Shown in pieces: positions 2,590-47,502 of a stretch of 64,000 nt of DNA (its first letter is position 1; every line of letters begins with the position of its first letter). The position numbers were made by a program, and so were the translations under genes. The notes under the pieces were generated by a model. The model was not told the DNA's origin, ran no database searches, and was given only the letters and a program-made list of their open reading frames with translations. The stretch lies in NCBI GenBank assembly GCA_046329495.1, contig JAXLUO010000007.1:61749-125748 (forward strand), written 5' to 3'. The DNA is from Chitinophagales bacterium (lineage in GTDB: Bacteria > Bacteroidota > Bacteroidia > Chitinophagales > LD1).

Positions 2590-3648
2590 CTATTTTTTTA
2601 GCTGAAAGGTGATCGGCATTTCGAAGTTCAGAAAATACATAGGGTGCAGCACTACTTGCCCTAACGTATTAAACTCTAAGGCAGGCATCGGTATTTTTAC
2701 AATGTTCAATATACCCAGTATTGCTTTGCCTACCCTGTTGCGGGTCTTAATTTTGGTAAGGTCGGCATCCACCGAAATAAAGAAACGGCGATAGCGCTTA
2801 ATATCCGTACGATCATGCAACACGCCATTTTTATCAGTCCATTTGTTTTCGAACCCGCCATACATATTGCCGGCAGCATAACCAAAGGCCAGGTTTAACC
2901 ACTTAGGTTTAATGTTATGGTTAAACGAGTACAGGTTAAACGACAACCACATGGTAATACCGTTGTAATCCTTTAGCAGTTTTTCGCCGAATCCTTTTCC
3001 GTACAGTTCGTTTGCGCGGTCGCGCAGTTCGCCTTGCGGGTAGTTAACGATGTGAAAAGAATACTTGCAATGTATGCGTTGCTCCTTCCAAAGCAAATAC
3101 TGTGTAGTAGCCAAAGCAGCACCTCCAAAGTTAAAGAGCAGGTCGCTCCAACTGGCGCCGTACTTGTTGCTGAAACCATCAGGTATTTCAATGGCCGATA
3201 AACTTAAAAAACCGAAAGCTCCGGCAGTAAGGGCCGCCGGTGTATTCTTCATGCCGCCCCAACGCAGCATGTTGTAGCTCCAGCAGGTAACAAAATACGG
3301 TACATAAAAATGCCCGGTTTTATCTATCTGTTGCCACTCACGGGCATCGTTAAACCAATGAAACTTACCCAGCGATTGTTTGCCATACCACTCAAAGCCT
3401 ACACCGGTCATAATAGCAGCATAGGTGCCTACGGTGCCAACTGATAATGCAGTTAGCCTGGCCACATTGGGCTTCGGGCTCCACTGCATCCAATGCGGAC
3501 TGCAATAATTTTTAACCTGTTCCTTATTAAACGGCGGGCAGTATACCGTATCGGTTGGTGGTAATTGTAAACTATCCTGCGCAACAATCGGCATGCCCAT
3601 ACAGCTAACAAAAACAATAAGCAGAAAAGTAAGCAATGGTTGCTTCAT
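2590..3648 (-). CDS. Envelope lipoprotein/outer-membrane protein, DUF2279-like
   Basis: Signal peptide with Cys (LLIVFVSCMG). The DKTGHF motif and Gly/aromatic-rich pattern resemble DUF2279 periplasmic lipoproteins. Confidence 0.55.
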   Translation of the reverse strand: MKQPLLTFLLIVFVSCMGMPIVAQDSLQLPPTDTVYCPPFNKEQVKNYCSPHWMQWSPKPNVARLTALSVGTVGTYAAIMTGVGFEWYGKQSLGKFHWFNDAREWQQIDKTGHFYVPYFVTCWSYNMLRWGGMKNTPAALTAGAFGFLSLSAIEIPDGFSNKYGASWSDLLFNFGGAALATTQYLLWKEQRIHCKYSFHIVNYPQGELRDRANELYGKGFGEKLLKDYNGITMWLSFNLYSFNHNIKPKWLNLAFGYAAGNMYGGFENKWTDKNGVLHDRTDIKRYRRFFISVDADLTKIKTRNRVGKAILGILNIVKIPMPALEFNTLGQVVLHPMYFLNFEMPITFQLKK

Positions 3649-3768: not shown

Positions 3769-5187
3769 TTAATGTGCTGCCGCTGCGCCTAATAAAGTAG
3801 TGCGCACTTTTTCCATCAACACATTTACACGGCCTTCGCTGCTGGCTTCCACATACACACGCAATAAGGGCTCGGTGCCGCTGGCACGTATCATTACTGT
3901 CTCTTCTTCTTCCAGGTAAAACTTGTAACCATCCAGGTCTTCTACTTTGCTGATAGCTACACCACCAAAGTCCTTATAAAAACCATTCTTACAATTTTCG
4001 ATAATGGCCAGTTTTTGTTCTTCTTTTAAATGCAGGTCTAAACGGTTATAAGAGAAAGCTCCTACCACTGCATACACTTCATCAATAAGTTCCTGCAGTT
4101 TTTGGCCGTTTTGTATCAGGTGCTGCACAATTACCAAACCATCCCAAATGCCATCGCGCTCAGGTATATGGCCTTTAACGGCAATGCCACCGCTCTCTTC
4201 GCCACCAACCAGCACGTCTTCGTTCTGCATAATCTCGCAGATATACTTAAAGCCAATCTTGGTTACTTCAATAGGCAAGCCGTATTGTTCGCACATCTTC
4301 TTCACCTTATTACTTACCGAAAAGGCAACCACCACCTTTCCATCCATGCCCTGGTATTTGTGCAGAATGTGGATCAACAACAGAATAATATGGTGCGCAT
4401 CTACAAAACGTGCACCGCTGTTGTATAAACCTATGCGGTCAGCATCGCCATCCGTAGCAATGGCCATATCCACGTGTTTCATTTCACGCAGGTAATGTTC
4501 CAGGTCTTTCAGGTTTTTTGAGATAGGCTCCGGTGCCTGACCGTAAAAGCTCGGGTTGTATTCGCAATGCAGGAAATCGGCATGCGGCATAATGCGCGGG
4601 AAAATACTTTGGCCGGCGCCATACATGGCATCGTAAGCAACTACCAGGTCAGAACTGTCATTTAGTGCTTCCAGGTCAAAGTGTTCCTGCACATGTTCAA
4701 AATACATGGTCTCAAGGTCTACTAATTCCAGTAACCCTTTTGCTTCCCATTCTTTTAAACTTAACTCCTCGCACGAAACCTGTTCGGGGATTATGTTCTC
4801 TATTTCGGTAATGTATTTCTGAATCAGTGGTCCACCGTGTTTCGACTTTAACTTATAACCGTTATAGCTTGGCGGGTTGTGGCTGGCGGTAAAAATTACA
4901 CCCAGTTCACACTCCAGTTTAAATGCCCCCAGCGATATCATAGGGGTCGAAACAAAGTGTTCATCGAAATACACCTTAATGCCTTCCGAGCACAACACAT
5001 TGATAGCGGTTTGCGCAAACAGGTGGCCACCAAAGCGGCAATCGTATCCTACTACAATTTTAGCATTGGCATCGCGCTGCTTTGCCCAATCGGCAGTTGC
5101 TTTAGCTACGCGCTTTACGTTTTCGGTAGTAAAGTCTTTAGCAATAATGCCTCTCCAACCATCGGTTCCGAACTTGATTTTATCCAT
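3769..5187 (-). CDS. Phosphohexomutase (phosphoglucomutase/phosphomannomutase family)
   Basis: Active-site loop TASHNPPSYNGYK, metal loop TDGDADR, sugar loop GEESGG, and N-terminal FGTDGWRG. Confidence 0.9.
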   Translation of the reverse strand: MDKIKFGTDGWRGIIAKDFTTENVKRVAKATADWAKQRDANAKIVVGYDCRFGGHLFAQTAINVLCSEGIKVYFDEHFVSTPMISLGAFKLECELGVIFTASHNPPSYNGYKLKSKHGGPLIQKYITEIENIIPEQVSCEELSLKEWEAKGLLELVDLETMYFEHVQEHFDLEALNDSSDLVVAYDAMYGAGQSIFPRIMPHADFLHCEYNPSFYGQAPEPISKNLKDLEHYLREMKHVDMAIATDGDADRIGLYNSGARFVDAHHIILLLIHILHKYQGMDGKVVVAFSVSNKVKKMCEQYGLPIEVTKIGFKYICEIMQNEDVLVGGEESGGIAVKGHIPERDGIWDGLVIVQHLIQNGQKLQELIDEVYAVVGAFSYNRLDLHLKEEQKLAIIENCKNGFYKDFGGVAISKVEDLDGYKFYLEEEETVMIRASGTEPLLRVYVEASSEGRVNVLMEKVRTTLLGAAAAH

Positions 5188-5338
5188 TCATCACAATTTT
5201 TGAAGCGGTAAATGTAAAAAACCGCCGTTAAGGAGGCATTGGCCGATAGTCAATTTAGTACACACGGGGATTGTTTTCCCCTTTTGGTGTTGGAAAGCAA
5301 GCCCTATTTTATGGGTATCTTTGTATTGCTTTACGCCA

Positions 5339-6007
5339 ATGGTAATGGAACGTGTAGATACATATCGCCACAAGGGTTTACGGAAAGAACTGGCCGTTAA
5401 ACTGCGCGACAAGGGAATAAGAGACCAAAATGTGTTAGGCGCAATTGAACGGGTGCCCCGGCATTTGTTTTTCGGGCCCGATTCCATTTTTTACGAAACG
5501 CATGCCTACGAGGATAAGGCCTTCCCGATAGGAGAGGGGCAAACCATTTCGCAACCCTATACCGTTGCTTACCAGTCGGAGTTGTTAAAGGTTAGCCCAG
5601 GCATGAAGGTGTTGGAAATTGGCACCGGCAGTGGTTATCAGGCCGCTGTGTTAGCCGAGTTAGGCGTTAAGGTTTATACCATCGAACGCCATCGCAAATT
5701 AAACGAACGCACCCGCCCGTTGCTGGAAGAATTGGGTTACCGTGGAATAAAATGCTTTTTTGGTGATGGTTTTGAGGGCCTTGTTGCTTTCGCTCCATTT
5801 GAACGGATCATCATAACTGCGGCCGTTCCTGAACTGCCTAAGAAACTTCTTTCGCAATTATCCGTAGGAGGTATATTGGTGATGCCCTTTGGAACCGAAA
5901 CCGATTGCGATATGATCCGTATCACCAAGCAGGCCGAAGGGCAATATACCGAAGAAGTATTCGGTAAATTTTCGTTTGTGCCAATGCTGAAGGGCAAAGT
6001 ATTTTAA
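5339..6007 (+). CDS. pcm: Protein-L-isoaspartate O-methyltransferase
   Basis: SAM motif VLEIGTGSGYQAAVLA, plus GEGQTISQPYTVA and C-terminal FVPM. I prefer the ATG at 5339 over the track's TTG at 5321. Confidence 0.9.
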   Translation: MVMERVDTYRHKGLRKELAVKLRDKGIRDQNVLGAIERVPRHLFFGPDSIFYETHAYEDKAFPIGEGQTISQPYTVAYQSELLKVSPGMKVLEIGTGSGYQAAVLAELGVKVYTIERHRKLNERTRPLLEELGYRGIKCFFGDGFEGLVAFAPFERIIITAAVPELPKKLLSQLSVGGILVMPFGTETDCDMIRITKQAEGQYTEEVFGKFSFVPMLKGKVF

Positions 6008-13267: not shown

Positions 13268-16222
13268 ACCTCAGTATCTTCTCTAAATGCCGACTTAACC
13301 CCCGGCACAGGCTTAACAGGTAGCGCCTACGATGGCTCCTCGCCCCAAACGTTTGGGGTAGCTTATGGCACAACCGCAGGAACTGCCGTACAAGGCAACC
13401 AAACAGCAACTATCAGCGCCGGAGCCGGATTAACAGGTGGCGTTACCGCCGATGCTTTGGGCGATGGTGTAACTGCAACTGTAAATGTAGGTGCAGGCAC
13501 CGGTATAAGCGTTAATGCCGATGATATTGCGGTTAAAGTGGATGGTAGTACCATCGATGCCGGCGGAGCAGGGGGCTCGCTGCGCGTTATTAGTATTCCG
13601 GGCGGCAATACAGGGTATATACAAAATACTACCAGCCAGCAAACACCGGCCAATTTTAATATAAGTGGTAACGGTATCCTCGCCGGGGCCACTCCTTTAA
13701 CCTTTACCTCTATCGGTACCGGCAACTATAATAAAACCGTGCTTTACCACGATGCCACACCAAACGGTTTTTATTTGGACCTGGCCCGTACCACCGATGC
13801 TGCCGGCGGTACGCCTATCGACTTCCGGATTGATGCACGTGGTGGAGGGGCAAACTTTTTTAGTATTAAAGGCGCTACAGGCAATGTAGGCATAGGCACG
13901 GCTGCACCCAATGTAAGGTTAGAGGTAAACGGTGCAACCCGCACTTCTTCGCTACAACTCACCAATACCAATACCGTACTTACGCAAGGCAGCGGAAACT
14001 CCATGCGCACTACCACCAACTACGGTTATACCGAAATTGGTCCGCAGAACACGGGATGGAGCCATTTTAATACTGATAGGCCGGCCTTCTGGTTCAATAA
14101 TCCTGTTTATGTAAATGGCGGTCAGTTCAGCAGCTACAATACCAGCGATCTGTTATTGCAAACCAATGGCACCACCCGTATAACTGCGCTTAGCACCAAT
14201 GGTAACGTGGGTATTGGCGTTAGCCCTTCGGCCCGCCTGCATGTTAGTGGTGGCGGTTTGTTGCTGGGCACTAACGGTACTTCATCCAACACACGTACTC
14301 TTACTATTTTAGAAGACGGCGATGCACAAACCAATTTCGGTTCGTATCCCGGTGCATGGACCAGCGCCCTGCAAATTCAGGATAATACCAGCGCTAACCG
14401 TTTTGTTTGGTTATCGCCGCTGGATGCCGGTTCAAGTGCAAATACCCGCCTGGTAAGTGCAGGTAGTGGCTTCGATCTGTATGTAAACGGAAATTCAGGA
14501 AGTTCCGGTTCCCTGGCTATGTCGGTGGCAGCAGGTACTTCCGTAACCCTGCCTTCGCTTAGTGCAGGCGGTTTGGTAAAGTCTTCAGGCGGCACTCTTC
14601 AAATTGCCGGTGGCGGCGATTTACCCGGCGGCAGCGGTAACTATATTCAAAACGGTACAGGTTCACAATCCGCTAATTTTAATATTACCGGTTTTGGTTA
14701 TGCAGGCAACTACTTTCAAACGCCTACCATGTATGTAAGCAACTACCGCCATACAGCCAGCACATACGAAAATGTTTATGCGGATAATAACAGTTCAGGT
14801 GGTTTCAGATTACTGCGTAACGATGGTAATAGCTGGGGCTATTTTTATGCAGATAACGGTGGTATCGGTATTTTGAAAGACGGCAGTTGGGCCATACGCG
14901 CTTCGGGCAGTACCAATGGAACTAACTCCGACGTTAGCTTTTATACCGACGGTGGAAACCGCCGGGCCTATATCAGTAGCGGCGGCTTGTATTTCGATGC
15001 GGCTAATCCATATATTAACGCATCTTCTTATTTCATTTCTCCGGGCGGTGCTTACTTTAACAGCGGCACAGTTTATTTCGAAGCAGCAACACAACACCGC
15101 GGCGGTATACAAAACGATGGTGGCAACTATAATGGCTGGGTGCGTATACACGACGACCTTTGGAGCGCCGGCTGGCTGCGCAGCGATGGCGGTGCAGGCT
15201 GGTATAGCCAAAGTTATGGTGGCGGATGGAACATGGTGGATGGCTCTTATGTTCGCTGCTATGGCGATAAAGCACTTACCTATGGGTTAGGAGCTTACAA
15301 CACCGCTTCAGTTTATGGCGGCTATGCATACGGCAATAGTACCAGCGATGGTCACCGCCAGTTACCCAATCCTAATGCGCCGGGCTCAACCGGATGGGGT
15401 TACCTGGGCCAAAGCAATACCGACTGGTACTATGTTTACACGGATAATCTTGCCAACACTTCTGCCCGCGAAAAGAAACGCGACATTACCCCGCTCGACG
15501 ATGCCATGATGGGCTATGTAATGAGCGATATCGAAAAAATTAAACCGTCATTCTATAAGTATAAAGGCGAATCGGATGAAATGGTTCCCGGATTCGAAAC
15601 CCGCTACCGTCCAAATATGCACCTTGGTGTTATTTTGGATGAAACCCCCGATTACCTGCAGGACAATGCCTTTAGCGGTGTAGACGTTTATGCCATGGGC
15701 GTGTTTGCCCTTACCGGTGTTAAATACCAGCAGAAACAAATTAAAGAGTTACAACAACAGGTAAGCAACAACATGACAGTTGGCACCGGCACAATTACCG
15801 GCACATCCGTAACGGTACAGTTACCCGCAGGTTTTTGTGCAACGGGCGAAACCCCTGTAATCAATATTACACCAACCAGCGCTAATACCGGTTTTTATGT
15901 AAGTGCAGCCGATAGCCGGTCATTCACCGTGGCAGCTAATGGCCCCATGACTTTTAACTGGCAGGCCGTAAAAGTTAGTTCTTCTCCGGCACCAGTAGCC
16001 GATGGTAAAACCAATGTTGATCCTGCCTTAGCAGGTCAGTTAGTGGTTGATCCTTCTATTAAAGATAAGGTGCATGATTACTGGAAAAAATCGAAAGAAC
16101 AGTTGCAGGCCGAATACAAAGTGTATCTGGATGGCGTAAAGCAAAACAATCCGCAGTTATACGAGAAACTATTGCGCGAAAACAAAAGTGCTGAAGACTT
16201 TGTAAAGGCACACAGCGAATAA
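12476..16222 (+). CDS. Secreted tail-fibre-like giant protein with S74-type intramolecular-chaperone (autoproteolytic) domain
   Basis: Signal peptide and Gly/Thr/Asn-rich beta-repeats with a recurring GNVGIGTxxPxxxLxV motif. An S74-like segment starts at about 15461 (TSAREKKRDITPLDD...IKPSFYKYK), followed by a coiled coil (QQKQIKELQQQ) and a further ~155-aa tail. Confidence 0.85.
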   Translation: MKQLYSLTLVLAFSASAMAQNVGVGTNNPASKLDVKGNLTIGNTYSGNAAPANGAIIQGPVGIGTSSPDGNALLDLTATDKGLLLPRVALVSTSNPISGTKPDGLMVYNTSTTGTYSTPGVYTWSTTANDWVRIITNTTLSGSLQPLTNSAGGGLGTFSYNGSTATQIGIANQGVVTGMIANDAVTTSQIAPNTITSADMGPNSVDLSSGVVTNVLPINRGGTNTNSLGSGGSIAYSNGTSYSFSPVGTGGQVLISGGTGQPTWTSVSSLNADLTPGTGLTGSAYDGSSPQTFGVAYGTTAGTAVQGNQTATISAGAGLTGGVTADALGDGVTATVNVGAGTGISVNADDIAVKVDGSTIDAGGAGGSLRVISIPGGNTGYIQNTTSQQTPANFNISGNGILAGATPLTFTSIGTGNYNKTVLYHDATPNGFYLDLARTTDAAGGTPIDFRIDARGGGANFFSIKGATGNVGIGTAAPNVRLEVNGATRTSSLQLTNTNTVLTQGSGNSMRTTTNYGYTEIGPQNTGWSHFNTDRPAFWFNNPVYVNGGQFSSYNTSDLLLQTNGTTRITALSTNGNVGIGVSPSARLHVSGGGLLLGTNGTSSNTRTLTILEDGDAQTNFGSYPGAWTSALQIQDNTSANRFVWLSPLDAGSSANTRLVSAGSGFDLYVNGNSGSSGSLAMSVAAGTSVTLPSLSAGGLVKSSGGTLQIAGGGDLPGGSGNYIQNGTGSQSANFNITGFGYAGNYFQTPTMYVSNYRHTASTYENVYADNNSSGGFRLLRNDGNSWGYFYADNGGIGILKDGSWAIRASGSTNGTNSDVSFYTDGGNRRAYISSGGLYFDAANPYINASSYFISPGGAYFNSGTVYFEAATQHRGGIQNDGGNYNGWVRIHDDLWSAGWLRSDGGAGWYSQSYGGGWNMVDGSYVRCYGDKALTYGLGAYNTASVYGGYAYGNSTSDGHRQLPNPNAPGSTGWGYLGQSNTDWYYVYTDNLANTSAREKKRDITPLDDAMMGYVMSDIEKIKPSFYKYKGESDEMVPGFETRYRPNMHLGVILDETPDYLQDNAFSGVDVYAMGVFALTGVKYQQKQIKELQQQVSNNMTVGTGTITGTSVTVQLPAGFCATGETPVINITPTSANTGFYVSAADSRSFTVAANGPMTFNWQAVKVSSSPAPVADGKTNVDPALAGQLVVDPSIKDKVHDYWKKSKEQLQAEYKVYLDGVKQNNPQLYEKLLRENKSAEDFVKAHSE

Positions 16223-33025: not shown

Positions 33026-34381
33026 CTAAATAATCTCCCAGTAACGCTTGGTTTCCCAGTCGGTAACCACCTTGCTGAACTGCCTCCATTCCCACTCACG
33101 TGTTTGGGTGAAGTGTTCTACAAACTGCGCCCCGAAAAGTTCCTTTGCCACCTTGCTTTCTTTCATGGCTTGGGTGGCTTCCCACAGGTTGCGCGGTAAG
33201 GTGCCGTGGCTGATATCGCGGTAGCCGCTGCCGTTGGTGGCGGGCTGTAATTTTAATTTGTTCTTTACGCCATATAAACCGGTGGCCATACATGCAGCTA
33301 AGGCCAGATAAGGGTTGCTATCGCTACCCACCACCCGTGTTTCTAAGCGGGTTGATTTGGATGAACCCGGCAAAGCACGCAATGCAACGGTACGGTTATC
33401 TATAGCCCAGGTAAGCGTAGTTGGCGCCCAGGCACCTTCCACCAAACGCTTGTAGCTGTTAATGGTGGGGGCAATCATGGGCAGTATAAACGGCAAACAA
33501 TACAACTGACCGGCCGTGTAACTCTTCATCACCTCGCTGATCTTATCCTTTGCCTTGTCGTCGAAAAATAGGTTTTTCTTGCCCGCCTTATCCCACAAAC
33601 TTTGGTGCACGTGTCCGCTGCAGCCCGGCAGGTTCTCGTTGGTTTTTGCCATAAAGGTGGCCATAATACCGTGGCGATAAGCTATCTCCTTCGTTCCGCT
33701 CTTAAACAGCACAGCACGGTCGGCGGCTTCTAAAGGTTCACCATAGGTAATAGCAGCTTCATATACCCCGGGTCCGGTCTCTGTATGCAAACCTTCCAAC
33801 GGTACATTAAAGTTTTGCATGTCCTCAAACAGGGCCGTAAAAAAGTCGTTGCGTAAGGTGCTGCGCAGAATAGAATAACCAAACATGCCCGGGGTTAATG
33901 GTGTTAGGTTGGTGTAATTCTTTTCTGCAGCGCTTTGTGGTGTCTCTGCAAAGTTAAACCACTCAAACTCCTGCGACATTACAATAGAATATCCGGCTTT
34001 ATCTACATCACCAATTACTTTGCGCAACAACTGGCGCGGACAAACATATAAGGGCTTTCCTTCATCGGTAATAAACTCGCCTAAAAAGAAAGGCACGTTA
34101 TTCTCCCAAGGTATTTTGCGGAAAGTGTTTAAATCAATACGCGCTTTTGCATCGGGGTAACCGCTGTGCCAGCCGGTGTAGTTAGTGTTGTCATAAGCCA
34201 CATCACTGCTGTCCCAGCCAAACACCACATCACAAAAACCCATGTTACCATCGGCAATGCTCAAAAACTTATCTACCGAAACATACTTGCCACGCAGCAC
34301 ACCATCAATATCCGTAATGGCCAGTTTAACTTTTTTAGAAGGATGGTTTTTAACGTAGTCGAGGATCTGTTTGGTGGTCAT
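33026..34381 (-). CDS. Glutamine synthetase family protein (type I-like; GlnA/PuuA-type ligase)
   Basis: 451 aa, with motifs GCSGHVHQSLW, NSYKRLVEGAWAP and RLETRVVGSDSNPYLA. Confidence 0.85.
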   Translation of the reverse strand: MTTKQILDYVKNHPSKKVKLAITDIDGVLRGKYVSVDKFLSIADGNMGFCDVVFGWDSSDVAYDNTNYTGWHSGYPDAKARIDLNTFRKIPWENNVPFFLGEFITDEGKPLYVCPRQLLRKVIGDVDKAGYSIVMSQEFEWFNFAETPQSAAEKNYTNLTPLTPGMFGYSILRSTLRNDFFTALFEDMQNFNVPLEGLHTETGPGVYEAAITYGEPLEAADRAVLFKSGTKEIAYRHGIMATFMAKTNENLPGCSGHVHQSLWDKAGKKNLFFDDKAKDKISEVMKSYTAGQLYCLPFILPMIAPTINSYKRLVEGAWAPTTLTWAIDNRTVALRALPGSSKSTRLETRVVGSDSNPYLALAACMATGLYGVKNKLKLQPATNGSGYRDISHGTLPRNLWEATQAMKESKVAKELFGAQFVEHFTQTREWEWRQFSKVVTDWETKRYWEII

Positions 34382-34469
34382 TTTAGTAGTGGTTTACCCG
34401 GCTTGAAAATACAATTAGCAGCGAAAGAGGCAAAGGGATTTTTGGGTTTGTTATTAGTTCTCCAGAGGG

Positions 34470-34545
34470 CGGGTCCACCCTGGGCTATGCTTCCCACTAA
34501 CTCCCTAAAGGGAGAACCGCCACCCAGGGCCTCCCATAGCCCTAC
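34470..34545 (-). repeat. Hairpin-core repeat (family R1), reverse orientation
   Basis: TCCCACTAACTCCCTAAAGGGAGAACCGC (34492-34520) is the reverse complement, 28 of 29 nt, of 35118-35146. The flanking CTGGGCTATGC / CCCAGGGC segments also match the family. Confidence 0.9.
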
Positions 34546-34569
34546 TCATGGCTGAGTCATTAAACGCGT

Positions 34570-34983
34570 TTATGTCTCATTATTACCGTTAACACTATTC
34601 TTCAATGTCTTCATCGTCTGTTTTATTTTTTCCAAAACAATATCCGGCTCATTAAACACTTCGCCATTTGTAAAGCGCAGAACATGAATGCCTAATCGCC
34701 GCATATCCTCATCCCAAAAATCATCGTAATCCTTAACACTTTTCTGCAGGTGATTGCCGCCGTCAATTTCTATTACCAGCCGAACTTTATGGCAATAAAA
34801 GTCTGCAATGAATGTGGCAATCGGATGCTGCCTTCTTAGGTTAAAACCCTGTAGCGGGTCTTCACTCCATTTCTGCCAGATAATCCCCTCTTCCACCGTA
34901 GCATGATTTCGCATTTGGTGCGCATACGCCATCAACTTAGGCGAAGCACCATAATACATCCCTTGCATGCCATTACTATTCAT
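34570..34983 (-). CDS. DUF559 (Vsr/restriction-endonuclease-like fold) domain protein
   Basis: Pattern typical of DUF559: ...HATVEEGIIWQKW...LRRQHPIATFIADFYCHKVRLVIEIDGGNH...DEDMRRLGIHVLRFTNGEV. The track start at 35064 reads through a degenerate repeat copy, so I start at MNSNGMQG (34983). Confidence 0.8.
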   Translation of the reverse strand: MNSNGMQGMYYGASPKLMAYAHQMRNHATVEEGIIWQKWSEDPLQGFNLRRQHPIATFIADFYCHKVRLVIEIDGGNHLQKSVKDYDDFWDEDMRRLGIHVLRFTNGEVFNEPDIVLEKIKQTMKTLKNSVNGNNET

Positions 34984-35012
34984 TCCTGTAAGATATGCTA
35001 TTAACTGGATTT

Positions 35013-35390
35013 CTGCCACTGCCTGGCCGTTCTCCCTCCAGGAATTAGTGGAATGCGAGACCAATGGAATCCGTACGCTTTTAATTTAGGCTCATTGGGT
35101 CCTTTGCCCACTGCATAGCGGTTCTCCCTTCAGGGAGTTAGTGGGATGCGCGGCCCATGGCCTGTTCGTCCAATCCGTCCATTGGTTCAATTACCAATCT
35201 ACCAATCACTGATCAACTATTCCACCGTATCATTCCCATCATAACCATCCGCGTTCTATTCCCCACTAGCCCACTGCATAGCGGTTCTCCCTTTAGGGAG
35301 TCAGTGGGATGCGTTGCCAATGGCTAACTTGTATTGTCTAAGCGCAGCGGTTATCCCATCAGCGAGTCAGTGGCATAAGAGGCCAATTGA
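35013..35390 (+). repeat. Cluster of four forward-orientation R1 hairpin-core repeats with stutter modules
   Basis: Copies lie at about 35013-35066 (degenerate), 35105-35160, 35269-35323 and 35340-35385 (degenerate). They are interleaved with GTCCAAT/CCAATC stutters and the ATAACCATCCGCGTTC module. Confidence 0.85.
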
Positions 35391-35405
35391 ATGCTTAACC
35401 CGCAC

Positions 35406-37160
35406 CTACCTCACCACCACCCTCTTCACCACCTCATTCCCTTCCATCCGGTAGCGCAGCAAATAAACGCCTGCGGCTAAGCCCTCGGTATTTAAAAAGG
35501 CATGGTTTTCTCCTGGCTTGCTAAGACCATTATAAACGTTCATCACCTGCTCACCCAGTAGGTTCAGGCAATCAACGCTTACATGCACTGCAGCTTTGGT
35601 GGTAAAAGGCAAACAGGTTATGCCCTTCGATGGATTCGGAAATACCTCACCAACGGCAATGGCATCAGCACCTAAAGCTGCAACGCCGGTTTCAGTGCCC
35701 AATACATGAAAATTATAGAAACCCTCCGGTGCCACAATAGGCCGCACCTGCTGCTTACCGCTAGCGGCTTGCGCGTGGATGTAATAAAACACCTCCGTGC
35801 CTGCCGGCTGTGCAGGTATGCTGGCTTGCCAATCATTACCGCCTGTATTGTTCATAGTAACCGATTGATAAGCCTGGGTGGTATCAGTAGTATAATACAG
35901 CGTGGCACTTTGTATACCACTGCGGTGGCGGATGCCGGCGGTAACAGTATAAGCCGTTGAAGTATTATAGGTATCGCGTAGGCGCATATGGTTAATCAAC
36001 AGCGGATCGCTAACCCCAATCTCGTGCGTAATACAATGCAGCGCCCCGCTGGAGGGTATGCTGCTGGTACTATTTATACCCACTACCCGGTAGCCGGGGC
36101 AAGCCTCGCGCCAAATGCGCAGCGCGGTGGTGTCCATCGTTTTGTTGTAAGTGGGTACGATGATAGTTTTATTGATGAACGAAGCATTGGTATAGGTATA
36201 ATACGTGCCGCCATTGTTAGGGTAAATACCGCCGTCACTCGGCACGGGCATACGCACTACCCGGTAATCGGTGCCGTAAACGGTTTTGTAATTGGCCAGT
36301 ATCCACTGCATGTTGGCTTCAATCTGCGGACCATCAGCTACACCTTGCGGATACTCACTCACCAGCAGCGTTTCTTCATCCAGCAACTTCATGTGCATGT
36401 CTATATGGTGTATGCCGTCATAAGGCAATGTTTGCATTTTTATATAGCGCTCAATACCCATAAAGTTTTTCATAATGGTATCAATCTCCGCCTCGGTATG
36501 GTTTACACCGAAGCCGCCTGCAGTGCTGTTATCGGTTAATATCAATTTGCTGGCAAAGGCGGTGCCCATACCATCACTCATATAATTACCGCCGGTATTT
36601 ACCAAAGCATAAGGTGCCTGCGTAGTGTGATAAACAGGTATGCCCATATTGCGGGCCAGGCCCTCAGGTATCGTATCATCCTTCGGCCGCGGACGGTTAT
36701 ATATCCAATCCACCAACACCAGCGAATCAACCCCGTTCAGGTAAACCGGGTTCTGTCCATAATCTCTTGCCCAAACCGTGTTGTAGGGAATAGTAAGGAA
36801 AGTAATATTCGAAGTATCAATCCCATTACTTTGCAAATCGCTAATAACTGATGAAGCGCTGCTACACACAATATACATGCGGCACTCCTGCTTACCATAG
36901 CGCACAATCTCGCGCAGCATACTGCTGTAACTGGTCCAGGTAATCAAATATCCCTGCGATTCCTCCCACTCAGCCATAGCGCGCACCGGCCCCTGCGGCG
37001 GACTGAAAAACGGCGAATAACTCCGCTCGCTGAAATCCGTCAACGGCGGCTGATACGTTTTCAGCATCTCCACCTCACCGGCGGTCAATCCGTTTGGTAA
37101 ATCCTGTGCTATGGCACCCAAACCAAGCAACACAAAAAACAACAGTAAAAAACAGCGCAT
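35406..37160 (-). CDS. Agmatine deiminase / peptidyl-arginine deiminase (PAD_porph) family enzyme with T9SS C-terminal sorting domain
   Basis: Signal peptide and guanidino-modifying motifs (VWARDYGQNP, NTGGNYMSDGMG, GIHHIDMHMKL, catalytic GALHCITHEI). The C-terminal ~80 aa matches a T9SS CTD (VFPNPSKGITCL...AGVYLLRY...KRVVVR). Confidence 0.85.
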   Translation of the reverse strand: MRCFLLLFFVLLGLGAIAQDLPNGLTAGEVEMLKTYQPPLTDFSERSYSPFFSPPQGPVRAMAEWEESQGYLITWTSYSSMLREIVRYGKQECRMYIVCSSASSVISDLQSNGIDTSNITFLTIPYNTVWARDYGQNPVYLNGVDSLVLVDWIYNRPRPKDDTIPEGLARNMGIPVYHTTQAPYALVNTGGNYMSDGMGTAFASKLILTDNSTAGGFGVNHTEAEIDTIMKNFMGIERYIKMQTLPYDGIHHIDMHMKLLDEETLLVSEYPQGVADGPQIEANMQWILANYKTVYGTDYRVVRMPVPSDGGIYPNNGGTYYTYTNASFINKTIIVPTYNKTMDTTALRIWREACPGYRVVGINSTSSIPSSGALHCITHEIGVSDPLLINHMRLRDTYNTSTAYTVTAGIRHRSGIQSATLYYTTDTTQAYQSVTMNNTGGNDWQASIPAQPAGTEVFYYIHAQAASGKQQVRPIVAPEGFYNFHVLGTETGVAALGADAIAVGEVFPNPSKGITCLPFTTKAAVHVSVDCLNLLGEQVMNVYNGLSKPGENHAFLNTEGLAAGVYLLRYRMEGNEVVKRVVVR

Positions 37161-37214
37161 GCAAAAGCGTTTAGCTAATTGAAAATAGCACCTTTTACCA
37201 ATCCGTCACCTTTA

Positions 37215-37965
37215 GCCCCTGCGCAGCGGTTCTCCCTTTAGGGAGTCAGTGGGATGCGAGGCCGTCAACCAATCCCCCCTATCATTCCCATCATAACCAT
37301 CCGCGTTCATCAGCGTTCTATTTTCCCTTGCCCCTGCGCAGCGGTCCTCCCTTTAGGGAGCCAGTGGGTAGCGAAGCCATTCGTCCAATTTGTCCAATCC
37401 GCCCAATTACCCATTTCATCATACTCAATCATAACCATCCGCGTCCATCAGCGTTCCATTCCCCACTAGCCCCTGCGCAGCGGTCCTCCCTTTAGGGAGT
37501 TAGTGGGTAGCGCAGCCCATGGCCATTCGTCCAATTTGTCCAATCCGTCCAATTACCCATTCATCATCCTCAATCATAACCATCCGCGTTCATCAGCGTT
37601 CTATTTTCCCTTGCCCCTGCGTAGCGGTTCTCCCTTTAGGGAGTCAGTGGGATGCGAGGCCGCTCACCAATCTACCCTATCATGCCCATCATAACCATCC
37701 GCGTTCATCCGCGTTCCATTTCCCATGCCCACTGCGTAGCGGTTCTCCCTTTAGGGAGTCAGTGGGATGCGAGGCCGTCAACCAATCCCCCCTATCATCC
37801 TCAATCATAACCATCCGCGTTCATCAGCGTTCTATTTTCCCTTGCCCCTGCGCAGCGGTCCTCCCTTTAGGGAGCCAGTGGGTAGCGAAGCCATTCGTCC
37901 AATTGGTTCAATCCGTCCAATTCGTTCAATTACCAATCACCCATCTACCAATCACCAATCCACTT
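37215..37965 (+). repeat. Six-unit tandem array of composite R1 repeats (units of about 114-144 bp, two subtypes)
   Basis: Units start at 37215, 37330, 37469, 37613, 37727 and 37844. Each has GCCCCTGCGCAGCGGTyCTCCCTTTAGGGAGyyAGTGGG, then variable CCAAT stutters, then CATCATAACCATCCGCGTTCATCAGCGTTCTATTTTCCC. The subtype order is A-B-B-A-A-B. Confidence 0.95.
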
Positions 37966-38014
37966 GCATTTCCCACCCCTTCTTCCTTATTTAGTCTACC
38001 CAAACCCCCAAACT

Positions 38015-38350
38015 ATGTCCCAATTTATCCTGTTTATCCGCGAGGATTTAACCCGCTACCCCATTCCCAAAGAGGAACTCAACAAACTCATAGAAGCCCA
38101 CCGCAACTGGGCAAAAGAACTGGCCGCCAAAGGCATTTTCAAAGGCGGCAACGGTATTGATAGCGATGGCCGCCTGATTGAAATGATCAACGGCGAACTC
38201 ATCGTGCAGCCCCTCCGCAACCCCGAGGAAGGCATCGGCGGCTACTATATTATCGAAGCCGACCACCTGCAGCATGCCGTGGAAATTGCTAAGGAGTGCC
38301 CTTCGTATAAGGATGGCGACCTGGTAGAAGTGCGGCCCCTGGGCGTGTAA
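38015..38350 (+). CDS. YciI-family (YCII/DGPF domain) protein
   Basis: 111 aa: MSQFILFIRED...GGYYIIEADHLQHAVEIAKECP...VEVRPL. The track start at 37964 lies inside the repeat array. Confidence 0.75.
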   Translation: MSQFILFIREDLTRYPIPKEELNKLIEAHRNWAKELAAKGIFKGGNGIDSDGRLIEMINGELIVQPLRNPEEGIGGYYIIEADHLQHAVEIAKECPSYKDGDLVEVRPLGV

Positions 38351-38389
38351 CCATAGCCACTAATTGCGGCTATTCCTTTACTTTGCCCC

Positions 38390-39793
38390 GTGCTCAATAC
38401 TGATACCATCGTGGCGCTGGCTACCCCGCAGGGGGTAGGGGCTATTGGCGTAATCCGTTTATCGGGGCCGCAGGCTATTGCCATTACCAACAGTGTGTTT
38501 AAAGGCAAAAACCTGCTGCAGCAACCTTCGCATACCATCCATTACGGACATATCACCGAAGGCGATAAAACCCTCGACGAGGTAATGGTAAGTCTCTTCC
38601 GCGCGCCCAAAAGCTTTACTACCGAAGATGTGGTAGAGATCAGTTGCCACGGCTCGCCCTACATTGCCGAACAAATCATTCGTCTGTTGATAGACAAAGG
38701 TGCCCGCGCCGCCAAACCCGGCGAGTTTACCCTGCGTGCCTTTATGCACGGCCGTATCGACTTATCGCAAGCCGAAGCAGTGGCCGATTTAATTGCCTCC
38801 AATTCCTCTGCCTCGGCGCAATTGGCGCTTACCCAAATGCGCGGCGGCTTCTCTACGCAGATAAAGGACCTCCGCCAAAGGCTGGTAAACTTTACCTCGC
38901 TCATTGAACTGGAACTGGACTTTGCCGAAGAAGATGTAGAGTTCGCCAACCGCCAGCAACTGCTGGACCTCATTGCCGAAATACAGCACCTGCTTGCTCC
39001 CCTGGCCGAATCGTTTAAACTGGGCAACGTGATAAAGAACGGCGTTAACACCGTTATCATCGGCAAGCCCAACAGCGGCAAAAGCACCTTGCTGAACACC
39101 CTGCTGAACGAAGAACGCGCCATTGTAAGCGATATACCCGGCACCACGCGCGATACTATTGAAGAAGTGATAAACGTGCACGGCGTATTGTTCCGCTTTA
39201 TTGATACCGCGGGCATACGCAGCACTACCGATGTAATTGAACAGGCAGGGGTGGAGAAGGCCCTGGAAAAGCTAAAGCAATCCTCGGTGTACATCTATCT
39301 GTTCGATGTAAACACCACCACGCCCGAAGAACTACTGCACGATGTAAAGGAACTGCAGCTCACCAACTTTAAAGGCATTTTGGTAGGCAACAAAATTGAT
39401 AGCGCCCATTGGCAGGATACCGCCCCTTTTTACTGGATACTGAAAAACAACCCCGCTACCAACGCCATTAACCTGCACGAGCATTTGCTGTTTGTATCTG
39501 CCGCGCAGAAGAAAGGCATTGATGTAATGAAAGAAAAACTCTACCGCCTGAACGTACACCAAAGCGTGCTGACGGAAAACACCATCATCAGCAACCTGCG
39601 CCACTACGAAGCACTTATAAAAGCCGACGAAACCCTTAGCGATGTAAAAGCCATTGTGCAGGCCGGTACCACAGGCGAACTCATCAGCCTGGAGCTAAAA
39701 CGCGCCCTCCAATACCTCGGCGAAATCTCCGGCGAAGTAACCAACGACGAGATACTGGGAAATATCTTTAGTAAGTTTTGTATAGGGAAGTAG
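38390..39793 (+). CDS. mnmE: tRNA modification GTPase MnmE
   Basis: TIVALATPQGVGAIGVIRLSG, G1 GKPNSGKSTLLN, G3 DTAGIR, and the C-terminal CIGK. Confidence 0.95.
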   Translation: MLNTDTIVALATPQGVGAIGVIRLSGPQAIAITNSVFKGKNLLQQPSHTIHYGHITEGDKTLDEVMVSLFRAPKSFTTEDVVEISCHGSPYIAEQIIRLLIDKGARAAKPGEFTLRAFMHGRIDLSQAEAVADLIASNSSASAQLALTQMRGGFSTQIKDLRQRLVNFTSLIELELDFAEEDVEFANRQQLLDLIAEIQHLLAPLAESFKLGNVIKNGVNTVIIGKPNSGKSTLLNTLLNEERAIVSDIPGTTRDTIEEVINVHGVLFRFIDTAGIRSTTDVIEQAGVEKALEKLKQSSVYIYLFDVNTTTPEELLHDVKELQLTNFKGILVGNKIDSAHWQDTAPFYWILKNNPATNAINLHEHLLFVSAAQKKGIDVMKEKLYRLNVHQSVLTENTIISNLRHYEALIKADETLSDVKAIVQAGTTGELISLELKRALQYLGEISGEVTNDEILGNIFSKFCIGK

Positions 39794-46000: not shown

Positions 46001-46217
46001 AAAACTATTTTGTTAAAAAAGGGAATTATAATGGTAAATAGTTTCAAAATACATTACCTTAGCAGTACAATAAAGAATGCCCCGGCTAAAGGCCTACCTA
46101 TGCCTTTAGCCGCTCACCACTAAAACACTAAAAGATGAACACCATTTTAAGCGCCAACCCTGCCGCCACCCTGCGTAACCACGCCCAACCCGACACACAT
46201 TATAATTTTGGCAATTT

Positions 46218-46407
46218 GTGCACTTGCAAATCAACTGCACAAATGTGCACAAATGCAATAATCGCTAATTCGTTAAAAGGCCTGTTTTCATCGCATTTAA
46301 CACAAAAATTCATCACATGAAAATTTCTGTAACTTGTGCACAAGCTGAAAAGTGCACAAGCATGCACAAGCAGTGTGGATAACCTTCCGGCAATGCCAAT
46401 GCACTTG
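46218..46407. repeat. Cluster of seven (G)TGCAC(A/T)(A/T)G motifs, including a perfect 12-bp palindrome CTTGTGCACAAG
   Basis: Motifs lie at about 46218, 46236, 46245, 46333-46344 (the palindrome), 46352, 46363 and 46400, inside a region of about 960 bp with no convincing gene. Confidence 0.8.
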
Positions 46408-46596
46408 GCTGCGCTCCCCCTTTTAGGGTTGGGGCTTTGTCTGTTTTCTGATCTCTGATTTCTGCTCTCTAAATAGAAAAAGTGTAAAGGAGTGTAAAGT
46501 TAGCATCGGCCTTCGGCCAATTTTAAACTCGAAACTTTAAATTTTAAACTAAACTCAACTGTAAACAGAAAACCGTAAACAGAAAACTTAAAGAAG

Positions 46597-47502
46597 CTAC
46601 TTTCCCAGCAACTGCTTTCTCAACGTCCTTGCCCGTTGGTCGGGTCCGTTATGGCTCCAGCCCGGCGGCATAAAAATGTATTTCAGCTTGTTCATCAAGC
46701 CCGGAGCGTTCTTTACATCCTGCCATAAGTCGTAATACTCGTGGCCGGCAATCTTAAACAGGTTATACGTATGTATATTCTTGGTAATACCGTAAACAGG
46801 CTTCTCATCATCCCGCTCCTCGGCAAAGGTGCCGAACAAGCGGTCCCATACAATAAGGATGCCGCCATGGTTCTGGTCCAGGTAGCGGATGTTCGAAGCG
46901 TGATGCACCCGGTGGTGCGAAGGCGTGTTAAAGATAAACTCGAACCAGCGCGGCATGCGGCGTATCAGTTCGGTATGTGGCCAGTATTGGTAAATCAGCG
47001 AAATGCTCATCATCATCAACATCATCAGCGGATCAAAACCAAGCAAGGGCATCCACATCCACCAGATGAACTTATAGAACTGCTCGCCCCAGCTTTGGCG
47101 CAGCGCCGTAGCAAAGTTCATATGTTGGGAGCTGTGGTGGTTAACATGCGCGGCCCAAAACACCCGCACCTCATGACTCAACCTATGATGCCAGTAAAAA
47201 GTAAAATCATCGCCGATAAAGATCAGCAGCCAGCTCCACCAATGCCAGCCGATGGTAAACAGGCGGTATTGATAAAGCAGGGTATACGTACCAAACGCCA
47301 GCGACTTCATCAGCAAGTCCACCACCAGCGAACCCAGGCCCATACCTATCGAGGCCAGCGCATCCTTGGTTTCGTACAAGTGCAAACGTTCTTTCCAGTT
47401 TACATAAAGCTCAATAGCTATCAGTATCAAAAACACGGGGATGGCGTAGGTAACAGGATCGTCCTGTGCCTCCATCATGCGGAAAATAGAGAGGAGCAAC
47501 AT
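46597..47502 (-). CDS. Fatty acid hydroxylase / sterol desaturase superfamily membrane protein
   Basis: His boxes HHRLSHE, HVNHHSSQH and HHRVHH, with 4-5 TM segments. Confidence 0.85.
   Translation of the reverse strand: MLLLSIFRMMEAQDDPVTYAIPVFLILIAIELYVNWKERLHLYETKDALASIGMGLGSLVVDLLMKSLAFGTYTLLYQYRLFTIGWHWWSWLLIFIGDDFTFYWHHRLSHEVRVFWAAHVNHHSSQHMNFATALRQSWGEQFYKFIWWMWMPLLGFDPLMMLMMMSISLIYQYWPHTELIRRMPRWFEFIFNTPSHHRVHHASNIRYLDQNHGGILIVWDRLFGTFAEERDDEKPVYGITKNIHTYNLFKIAGHEYYDLWQDVKNAPGLMNKLKYIFMPPGWSHNGPDQRARTLRKQLLGK

Follow-up and report, generated by a model that had tools for sequence, protein, structure and literature searches.

Inverted hairpin arms flank most DUF559 nuclease genes of a large gene clade in Bacteroidota and recur as gene-less copies beside them

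A DUF559 nuclease gene and the repeats around it were analysed in a 64,000-nt stretch of DNA from a Chitinophagales bacterium (GCA_046329495.1, contig JAXLUO010000007.1, positions 61,749 to 125,748 of the forward strand). This whole stretch is referred to as the window; positions are counted from its first letter, and the other loci compared with it carry L numbers. The DUF559 gene (34570–34983, minus strand) lies between inverted copies of a short hairpin repeat, designated here as arms, and this bracket is a property of a large clade of DUF559 genes in Bacteroidota. A common architecture and its enrichment in the clade were observed, together with gene-less doublets of arms, arrays of arms at the side of the gene, one inversion and copy-number differences between close relatives. 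These results point to an apparently undescribed family of small selfish elements in Bacteroidota. The gene and its flanking repeats may constitute a single unit, a small cassette with inverted hairpin arms at its ends, on which the DUF559 protein would act, and our confidence in this reading is evenly divided between acceptance and doubt. A literature search, which included the motif sequences and ycjD, found no description of an association between DUF559 and a repeat, in agreement with the original prediction for this DNA, made from its letters alone, whose author knew of no such link.

When metagenomes were scanned with 32 aligned homologs, 80 loci were obtained, with DUF559 genes 37–52% identical to the query. 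For the flank test, the 250 nt upstream of each gene were aligned with the reverse complement of the 250 nt downstream, and a score of at least 30 was taken to mean bracketed. Forty-four of 71 homologs (62%) reached this score, 39% scored at least 40, and the median was 37; after de-duplication to 65 clusters the bracketed share was still 62%. Mispaired flanks (upstream of one locus, downstream of another; 284 pairs) reached 30 in 9.5% of cases with a median of 19, control open reading frames (ORFs) in the same loci in 1 of 186 cases (0.5%, median 18), and distant DUF559 genes on viral contigs in 2 of 46 (4%, median 18). An earlier, cruder flank test gave 29/66 versus 1/251 (Fisher p = 1e-21). 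The closest relatives after the ortholog (P0004, P0008 and P0009) were all bracketed. In the window, the DUF559 gene scored 56 and the next best ORF 27, which made it the only bracketed one among 44 ORFs. It had been predicted to be the only gene there with inverted flanks, and it had been asked whether other DUF559 genes are bracketed; both points are borne out by these counts. A phage origin was rejected, as the viral contigs held only distant, armless DUF559 genes. On contig L151, a second DUF559 paralog (13380–14081) had its own 70-nt arms of quite different sequence, with two palindromes, CTTCATTTTTC...GAAAAATGAAG and CCCCCGCTGGCGGGGG; therefore, different paralogs carry different arm classes.

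The arms were found without a hairpin criterion, and a perfect stem of at least 5 bp was present in 66% of them versus 8% of shuffles. The consensus from 113 instances consisted of CCCCY, an AAA-like linker, YCCCC, a TAAA-like loop, GGGG and then R-M-TTT; the arm of the window reads CCCAC-TAA-CTCCC-TAAA-GGGAG-AACC. The common architecture was thus a C-run, a short linker, a 4–8-bp C/G hairpin and an A-rich loop. In the orientation of the gene, the layout from the 5' side was the C-run, a 3–5-nt linker, the C-arm, the TAAA-like loop and the G-arm followed by AAC or ACTT, then 20–100 nt, the gene from ATG to stop, 0–90 nt, and the inverted arm. The stem sequence varied by locus (CCCC/GGGG, CTCCC/GGGAG, CCCTCTCC/GGAGAGGG, TTCCC/GGGAA), and the arms within one cassette matched. 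The outer C-run was distal in 59 versus 19 cases upstream and in 50 versus 15 downstream. It thus points outward on both flanks, which gives the arms a polarity like that of transposon ends. Within 200 nt of DUF559 genes, the density of C/G hairpins was about 13 times that of the rest of the loci. A CRISPR array was rejected, as the "spacers" of the 115-nt units were themselves conserved (88% matches; families D4–D7); the only match to a CRISPR direct repeat was below threshold and lay inside the DUF559 ORF.

The fixed positions of the arms relative to start and stop would also be expected if the arms were cis-acting expression elements of the DUF559 transcript, either 5' and 3' hairpins or a stem between the two ends, that insulate, stabilise or process the mRNA, the gene-less copies then being relics of decayed cassettes. 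Free-standing Vsr-like endonuclease genes, moreover, often have hairpins in the 5' untranslated region (PMC2677866). However, arm mismatches on the sense strand showed no G-U bias (G-U-compatible 76 versus 85, with 191 transversions), and a long-range RNA stem between the arms was rejected for this reason. The arms were not terminator-like either: no intrinsic terminator was called in them and the sites of a consensus scan were no more numerous than in shuffles, so that terminators and promoters were discarded. A search of Rfam 15 gave no relevant match in the window region at E ≤ 1 and none at the gathering score in 19 related loci. We consider expression elements improbable.

Convergent arm pairs were bimodal in spacing. 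About 30 pairs with gaps of 7–142 nt were gene-less, and pairs with gaps of 400–650 nt all carried DUF559, in a sample that was itself selected through DUF559; the few pairs in the second range that were scored without the gene resulted from gene boundaries mis-set by ORF extension. In L042, a gene-less doublet lay 1.7 kb from the cassette and had the same 26–27-nt arms, and in L049 and L083 a full doublet was present on each side of the gene. Arrays of arm units were found at most 60 nt from the gene in L156, L007, L011 and L072 besides the window, that is, in at least five lineages, and 6 of 9 long-period arrays fell in the 14% of sequence near DUF559 genes. The L156 array consisted of 8.5 units of 60 nt with 94% matches, and the same genomic site in L149 held two units; arrays of 8–9 intact arms that are 94% identical are not expected if gene-less copies arise by decay. 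The L007 array consisted of 5.6 units of 103 nt with two alternating, oppositely oriented modules, one of them the core of the window repeat, and the gene together with one inverted arm lay in phase within it. Cassettes were patchy in distribution and sometimes multi-copy, with two on L023, two on L151 and three on L051. The three cassettes on L051 (1–1872) formed a tandem that repeats about every 575 nt; each had its own arms, and the middle one was frameshifted. In L063, arm-like palindromes occurred at 2833–2852 and 3617–3637, at the edges of or inside a kdtA-like coding region, and are possibly intragenic insertions of the motif.

Comparison of L014 with L013 and L015 (cassette at 4906–5432) showed that the L014 cassette (2835–3360) was inverted relative to the conserved flanks. 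The breakpoints lay in the 28-nt arms, which were identical in L013–L015, while the genes were only 82–86% identical. An extra arm and spacer were present past the gene in L013. One cassette inverted across its arms would also suit a passenger. In that case the enzyme that recognises the arms would be encoded at another locus and might be a tyrosine recombinase, an HUH/Y1 transposase or an integrase of the integron type, and DUF559 would simply be the commonest cargo. A hairpin with an adjacent conserved run resembles the ends used by IS200/IS605 and RAYT enzymes (RAYT, the transposase associated with repetitive extragenic palindromic, or REP, sequences), and some copies of the window repeat read CTGCGTAGCGG, which contains GTAG. 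A genome-wide study also listed DUF559 genes as enriched among predicted programmed inversions (PMC9881135), an enrichment that may be the footprint of the same inverted repeats. However, the arm pairs 400–650 nt apart carried DUF559 only, within the sampling through DUF559 described above, and neither the 64-kb window nor the surroundings of the cassettes examined contained a transposase or recombinase. GTAG occurred in some window copies only (CTGCGTAGCGG versus CTGCGCAGCGG or CTGCATAGCGG), where it was located inside the outer stem. It was not part of the family consensus, and the GTAG/CGTC tags of the REP superfamily (PMC3733652) were inconsistent. Integron attC sites were rejected as well: the arms read GTT followed by pyrimidines (GTTCTCCC) and not the R' consensus GTTRRRY, there was no integrase, and the cargo was always DUF559. 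An outside enzyme is thus a doubtful account of the arms, to which we give slightly less credence than to expression elements.

In the window itself, the 29-nt core TCCCACTAACTCCCTAAAGGGAGAACCGC was found at 34492–34520 (plus orientation) and its reverse complement at 35118–35146 with one mismatch, which reproduced the core to the left of the DUF559 gene and its near-perfect inverted copy to the right, in coordinates and mismatch, as first reported. Five more core matches in minus orientation with at most 3 mismatches were found at 35281, 37226, 37480, 37624 and 37739, where chance would give none. With a profile built on the 56-nt unit, 11 copies were detected, one oriented to the left and ten in the opposite direction. 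The ten formed two blocks, 35015–35387 and 37215–37897, and confirmed the predicted right-hand orientation of all other copies. All 11 lay within 3.5 kb, and the other 60 kb of the window contained none. The inner palindrome CTCCCnnnnGGGAG occurred 9 times versus 0.08 expected, always within 34501–37874.

The downstream arm (34479–34530, minus strand) lies 40–90 nt past the DUF559 stop, is the sole copy in left orientation and contains the core at 34492–34520, which is identical in 29 of 29 positions to that of the ortholog locus L006 (4554–4604). It sits within a wider palindrome formed by GGGCTATG (34483–34490) and CATAGCCC (34536–34543). The proximal upstream arm (35015–35067, plus strand; nhmmer E = 3e-7), 32–84 nt before the ATG, is decayed, with a disrupted hairpin. 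The left copy would originally have been paired with it, because this upstream arm is orthologous to an intact arm 32 nt before the ATG in L006 (4016–4068). The original bracket thus appears to consist of 35015–35067 and 34479–34530, and the copy at 35118–35146 that had first been paired with the left one would belong to the next unit outward. That unit is an extra arm copy at 35107–35160 (plus strand); another follows at 35270–35323 (plus strand), and a degenerate copy at 35342–35387 (plus strand; nhmmer E = 3e-6) adjoins the stop of the deiminase gene described below, so that the upstream block (35015–35387) holds four copies, two of them degenerate. Spacer modules at 35162–35269 (plus strand), with CCAAT-rich 9-mers and CATAACCATCCGCGTTC (repeat families D5–D8), are common to the second array.

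The genes next to DUF559 encode glutamine synthetase (GS; 33026–34381, minus strand) on one side and on the other a Por-secreted (type IX secretion system, T9SS) peptidyl-arginine/agmatine deiminase (PAD; 35406–37160, minus strand), followed by a YCII protein and MnmE. The second array (37215–37965, plus strand) lies between the PAD and YCII genes and contains six arm-containing units with a period of 115–145 nt, all oriented as the upstream arms, with arm copies at 37215–37267, 37330–37383, 37469–37522, 37613–37665, 37728–37780 and 37844–37897. A 9-nt microsatellite (ATTCGTCCA and variants) was present within the long-type units at 37525–37554, 37893–37931 and 35152–35191. Arm copies were thus amplified directly upstream of the gene and, in the lineage of the window only, also in the next intergenic region 2 kb away. 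The copies other than the bracket are probably gene-less arm derivatives that were amplified locally.

The core was found in 5 metagenome-assembled genomes (MAGs) among 185,579 species-representative genomes, all from Chitinophagales/Bacteroidota. One of these, MAG_MBR_H125.33, contained the syntenic locus L006 with MnmE, YCII, PAD, DUF559 and GS. Its DUF559 ortholog was 85% identical as protein across all 137 aa (by tblastn, 86%) and had the same ATG, with the intact arm 32 nt before it and an inverted arm 40 nt past the stop. L006 had no second array, and its YCII–PAD spacer was about 80 nt. The strain-variant contig L091 (1.2 kb) had 4 units versus the 6 of the window, a soft count from a short-read assembly. 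Repeat number therefore seems to have grown in the lineage of the window. At L091 1–45, a hairpin motif of another class (CTCTCCTTCGGAGAGGGGTCGGGGGAGAGG) adjoins the array where the window sequence differs, and this is either a real structural change or an assembly join at repeats. An exact protein look-up for strain variants returned no record for GS, and for YCII and DUF559 only contigs of 1.2 kb and 0.6 kb that end in repeats. Solo copies occupied divergent, convergent and co-directional spacers, which is a further point against arms that serve the DUF559 transcript.

In L093–L099, whose PAD genes are 65–75% identical, MnmE, YCII and PAD were followed by a low-molecular-weight phosphatase (LMWPc) instead of DUF559 and GS. 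No DUF559 gene and no repeat copy was found at this site in L093–L099, and the second array was absent from L094–L099. Gene and repeats were thus co-present or co-absent at the site of the window, while synteny also changed where the gene was absent. The original prediction had named an intact repeat block without the gene in relatives as evidence against a role of the nuclease, and these gene-free relatives had no repeats either. The YCII–PAD spacer of L093 (1848–2372; PAD 75% identical) was 525 nt long with an unrelated repeat, CTTGATTTTTTGATTCTTTTTCATCAAGAAAAAAGAATAGGA, at both ends, and a different small insertion appears to fill the spot of the window's array there. The locus is a synteny break, where relatives have LMWPc after PAD, as might be found if a small accessory gene and unrelated junk repeats had come together by chance in a permissive intergenic region. 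The enrichment and the conserved geometry across dozens of independent loci already reject such a chance co-location, and its probability is negligible.

The window protein is a predicted Vsr-like PD-(D/E)xK nuclease with an intact catalytic set. Counted from the ATG at 34983, it has 137 aa; the mechanical ORF extends to a TTG at 35064, and the true start is probably the ATG, as in the ortholog. The match to Pfam PF04480 scored 96.9 bits, where the cut-off is 20.6 (E = 7.9e-28, model positions 3–108 of 109), a weak MTES_1575 match was also present in the flanked ORF beside DUF559, and no specific NCBIfam model matched the protein. D61, E72, D74 and H78, in (I/V)DF ... E-x-D-G-x-x-H motifs, were invariant across the 32 aligned homologs including the window protein. 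The nearest solved structures were an uncharacterised Neisseria DUF559 protein (3HRL, E = 5e-28) and, by profile match, the catalytic domain of the homing endonuclease I-Bth0305I (3R3P, E = 0.002), the closest structural relative that has been characterised (PMC3239194, PMC2677866). The DUF559 dN/dS was 0.29 against the 85%-identical ortholog and 0.02–0.07 for the neighbours, which means relaxed but not neutral evolution. The dS between the window and L006 was uneven across 33026–39793 (DUF559 0.22, MnmE 0.22, YCII 0.51, GS 0.88, PAD 1.03), which suggests mosaic recombination or recent exchange of the cassette. A Caulobacter DUF559 protein acts as a DNA-damaging Vsr-like endonuclease (PMC12907096). 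The family is large, with more than 3,700 clusters at 90% identity from one search restricted to word-sharing candidates.

Pfam analysis of 45 ORFs found no transposase, integrase, HUH/Y1 enzyme or DNA methyltransferase in the window, the sole methyltransferase being an ArsM-like enzyme beside ArsR. A Vsr very-short-patch repair system was rejected, as these 45 ORFs contained no partner C5 DNA methyltransferase. A defence system was also rejected, as PADLOC gave only faint matches to nuclease domains of large proteins.

Under the preferred reading, in which gene and arms are one unit, the DUF559 protein would recognise the arm as a hairpin or as a palindromic duplex and would nick it. The cassette would then spread and persist, much as in homing, through recombinational or copying repair of the nick; such repair would also yield local duplications, doublets and inversions. 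This reading is based on four observations: the arms enclose no protein other than DUF559, the protein retains all its catalytic residues, the gene has a dN/dS of less than 1, and arrays recur beside it. A selfish cassette with the repeat as its target, the alternative given in the original prediction, is also a possible account.

The E. coli gene ycjD, a DUF559 gene checked as an outgroup, showed a parallel arrangement. The gene ends within a hairpin element, CACCCTCTCCC-TGAAAGAG-CGAGGGGG, which takes in the last codons and the stop. An inverted element, CCCCTCACCC-TAA-CCCTCTCCCC-AGA-GGGGCGAGGG, follows about 150 nt downstream of it and has the same architecture as the Bacteroidota arms (ycjD and elements at 1351190–1351760 of E. 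coli K-12, NC_000913.3; locus L157, 7190–7761). The repeat, TTTTCCCCTCACCCTAACCCTCTCCCCAGAGGGGCGAGGGGACC, has a C-run CCTCACCC, a TAA linker and a CCCTCTCCCC/GGGGCGAGGG hairpin, and comes close to the arms of the class seen in L058, L074 and L088. Unlike the Bacteroidota cassettes, ycjD has no upstream arm. The sequence between the two elements repeats the ycjD 3' end over 70 nt, includes a decayed arm and is a remnant of a second cassette; a gene-less doublet that contains such a DUF559 3'-end remnant would also fit copies left by decay around an expression element. The 61-nt element is dispersed: K-12 has it in 20 places, and 5,426 complete genomes carry a median of 18 each. Most copies are solo, for example between tusA and zntA. 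This dispersed repeat is probably "Box C", first noted upstream of envM/fabI.

The ycjD gene and its adjacent elements were present in 62% of the genomes, and the eefRABCD efflux operon took the site in the rest. In a sample of 60 evenly spaced genomes, in which the other copies of the repeat were counted, the 37 ycjD-positive genomes had 10–26 copies (median 18) and the 23 ycjD-negative genomes 1–16 (median 5; Mann-Whitney p = 7e-10). Repeat copy number had been proposed to follow the presence of DUF559, and for this analogous repeat the difference had the expected direction. The gene occurs in phylogroups A, B1 and C, and independently in ST69 and ST182 (PMC12817139). No published link between the E. 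coli repeat and ycjD was found in the literature.

A stronger claim, that the DUF559 clade is the engine of a new class of mobile or self-maintaining elements and that the repeat beside ycjD belongs to the same system, is offered tentatively and as clearly less probable than the cassette itself. A Vsr-type nickase would then recognise the short tripartite hairpin motif at both cassette ends, and nick-induced copying would propagate the cassette together with gene-less doublets, solo arms and arrays.

Several observations weigh against action of the nuclease on the arms. Clear arms were missing from 38% of the homologs. Predicted to fold as a hairpin, the core does contain a 5-bp inner stem, with a 6-bp outer stem in some units, but these window hairpins are short and the folds were not significantly better than those of shuffled sequence (z −1.8 to +0.3). 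Target-site duplications were not seen by eye at the ends of L014, L015 and L042, by inspection only and with no systematic scan. Among the six separate loci with repeat copies in the relative MAG, five had no DUF559 gene within several kb, and E. coli genomes of the O157:H7 type had 12–16 copies and no ycjD. We know of no strand-transfer activity in a Vsr-like nickase of 125–137 aa; therefore, any movement must rely on host recombination. The arms can also be more conserved than the genes, since one arm class can flank genes only about 70% identical, and this would fit a host-maintained repeat as well. The copy-number contrast in E. coli tracks phylogroups and thus reflects few independent events (PMC12817139).

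A number of these points suit the main rival explanation, in which the repeats are a host-wide REP-like family and DUF559 is a free-standing, homing-type invader in or next to palindromes, so that the halves of its target become inverted flanks. Free-standing Vsr-like homing endonuclease genes are known (PMC2677866, PMC3239194). Besides the conservation of the arms, the solo copies that both the relative MAG and E. coli have at sites remote from every DUF559 gene, and the copies retained in O157:H7-type genomes, this explanation is favoured by the insertion-like phase of the gene and inverted arm in the 103-nt array of L007, and by the two cassette orientations at the L014 site, which fit insertion into a palindromic target. 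However, the gene-less relatives at the site of the window had no repeats, so that no pre-existing target is visible there; arrays recur beside the gene in independent lineages, which a passive invader would not predict; and each paralog has its own arm class. On balance, an invader of host repeats is unlikely, but it stands ahead of RNA elements, an outside enzyme and an invertible switch, which are weaker.

The arm motif beside each gene represents a fixed DNA partner and makes DUF559 function biochemically testable. If the nuclease acts on the arms, the pair would be a REP/RAYT-like combination of repeat and enzyme on a different catalytic fold, and a possible source of compact structure- or sequence-specific nickases. 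If the clade is indeed the engine of these elements, this very large domain of unknown function would acquire a role, and a classical repeat family an origin. The finding also explains intergenic repeats that break short-read assemblies of Bacteroidota, as contigs with the genes of the window end in repeats. The E. coli parallel makes the proposal testable in a model organism, in which lineages with and without ycjD occur naturally and complete genomes number in the thousands.

Elsewhere in the window, a gene-free, AT-rich stretch was found at 46200–46600 with tandem 10-mers (TGCACAAATG × 2 and TGCACAAGCA × 2) and a motif-like sequence, CCCCCTTTTAGGGTTGGGG, at 46411–46431. The only perfect DnaA box in the window was at 46374–46382, and the cumulative GC-skew minimum was at about 46–50 kb. 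The stretch 46200–46600 may be the chromosomal replication origin.

Comparison with known systems showed that the cassettes are not REP/RAYT, miniature inverted-repeat transposable elements (MITEs) with DDE enzymes, integrons, CRISPR or any Rfam family, a defining feature of each being absent. The closest likeness was to REP/REPIN–RAYT systems, in which a small nuclease-type gene lies between inverted short palindromes (PMC2817692, PMC3116915, PMC3337134), further copies of the repeat are solo, in inverted doublets or clustered, and gene copies have their own repeat class. The REP/RAYT-like arrangement first proposed for the window thus held for the gene between inverted repeats, clade-wide, and for the gene-less doublets, solo copies and arrays, but not for the HUH/Y1 transposase or a consistent GTAG. 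Membership of this group was rejected, as no Y1_Tnp domain was found in the window and the GTAG (or CGTC) foot tag was not conserved. Unlike the HUH/Y1 transposase of RAYT systems, the flanked gene encodes a Vsr-like PD-(D/E)xK DUF559 protein. RAYT genes are vertically inherited as one copy per genome, whereas the DUF559 cassettes are patchy and sometimes multi-copy. REP sequences number hundreds, whereas the arm copies seen number tens, with stems of only 4–8 bp and an extra direct C-run instead of the GTAG tag.

As in enterobacterial bacterial interspersed mosaic elements (BIMEs), oppositely oriented hairpin modules joined by conserved linkers alternate (modules A/B of the 103-nt unit in L007; L010 and L004), but the motif sequences differ and a DUF559 gene lies inside or beside the array. 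Small ORFs separated by imperfect palindromes, as in the doublets of L049 and L083 and the tandem of L051, recall integron attC cassettes. Unlike integrons, however, there is a single cargo family and no integrase, and the arms are inverted single units rather than one attC per cassette. The DUF559 protein shares with the Vsr-like (EDxHD) homing endonucleases, such as I-Bth0305I (PMC2677866, PMC3239194; 3R3P), the catalytic fold (profile E = 0.002), a small stand-alone, selfish-looking gene with a hairpin before its start, and possibly presence or absence at a fixed site between relatives. Unlike those enzymes, it is not in an intron, intein or fractured gene and has no separate NUMOD-like DNA-binding domain; its gene is intergenic, enclosed by its own inverted arms and accompanied by a repeat family that has been amplified.

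As in terminal-inverted-repeat (TIR) transposons and MITEs, the terminal inverted repeats are polarised, and gene-bearing (400–650 nt) and gene-less (7–142 nt internal) forms share their ends. In contrast to TIR transposons and MITEs, DUF559 is the sole ORF between the arms, with no DDE transposase and, by inspection, no target-site duplication at the cassette ends examined; gene-less forms also make head-to-tail arrays readily, unlike MITEs. By analogy, the cassette could be regarded as a functional counterpart of RAYT/REPIN or transposon/MITE pairs that employs a different type of enzyme.

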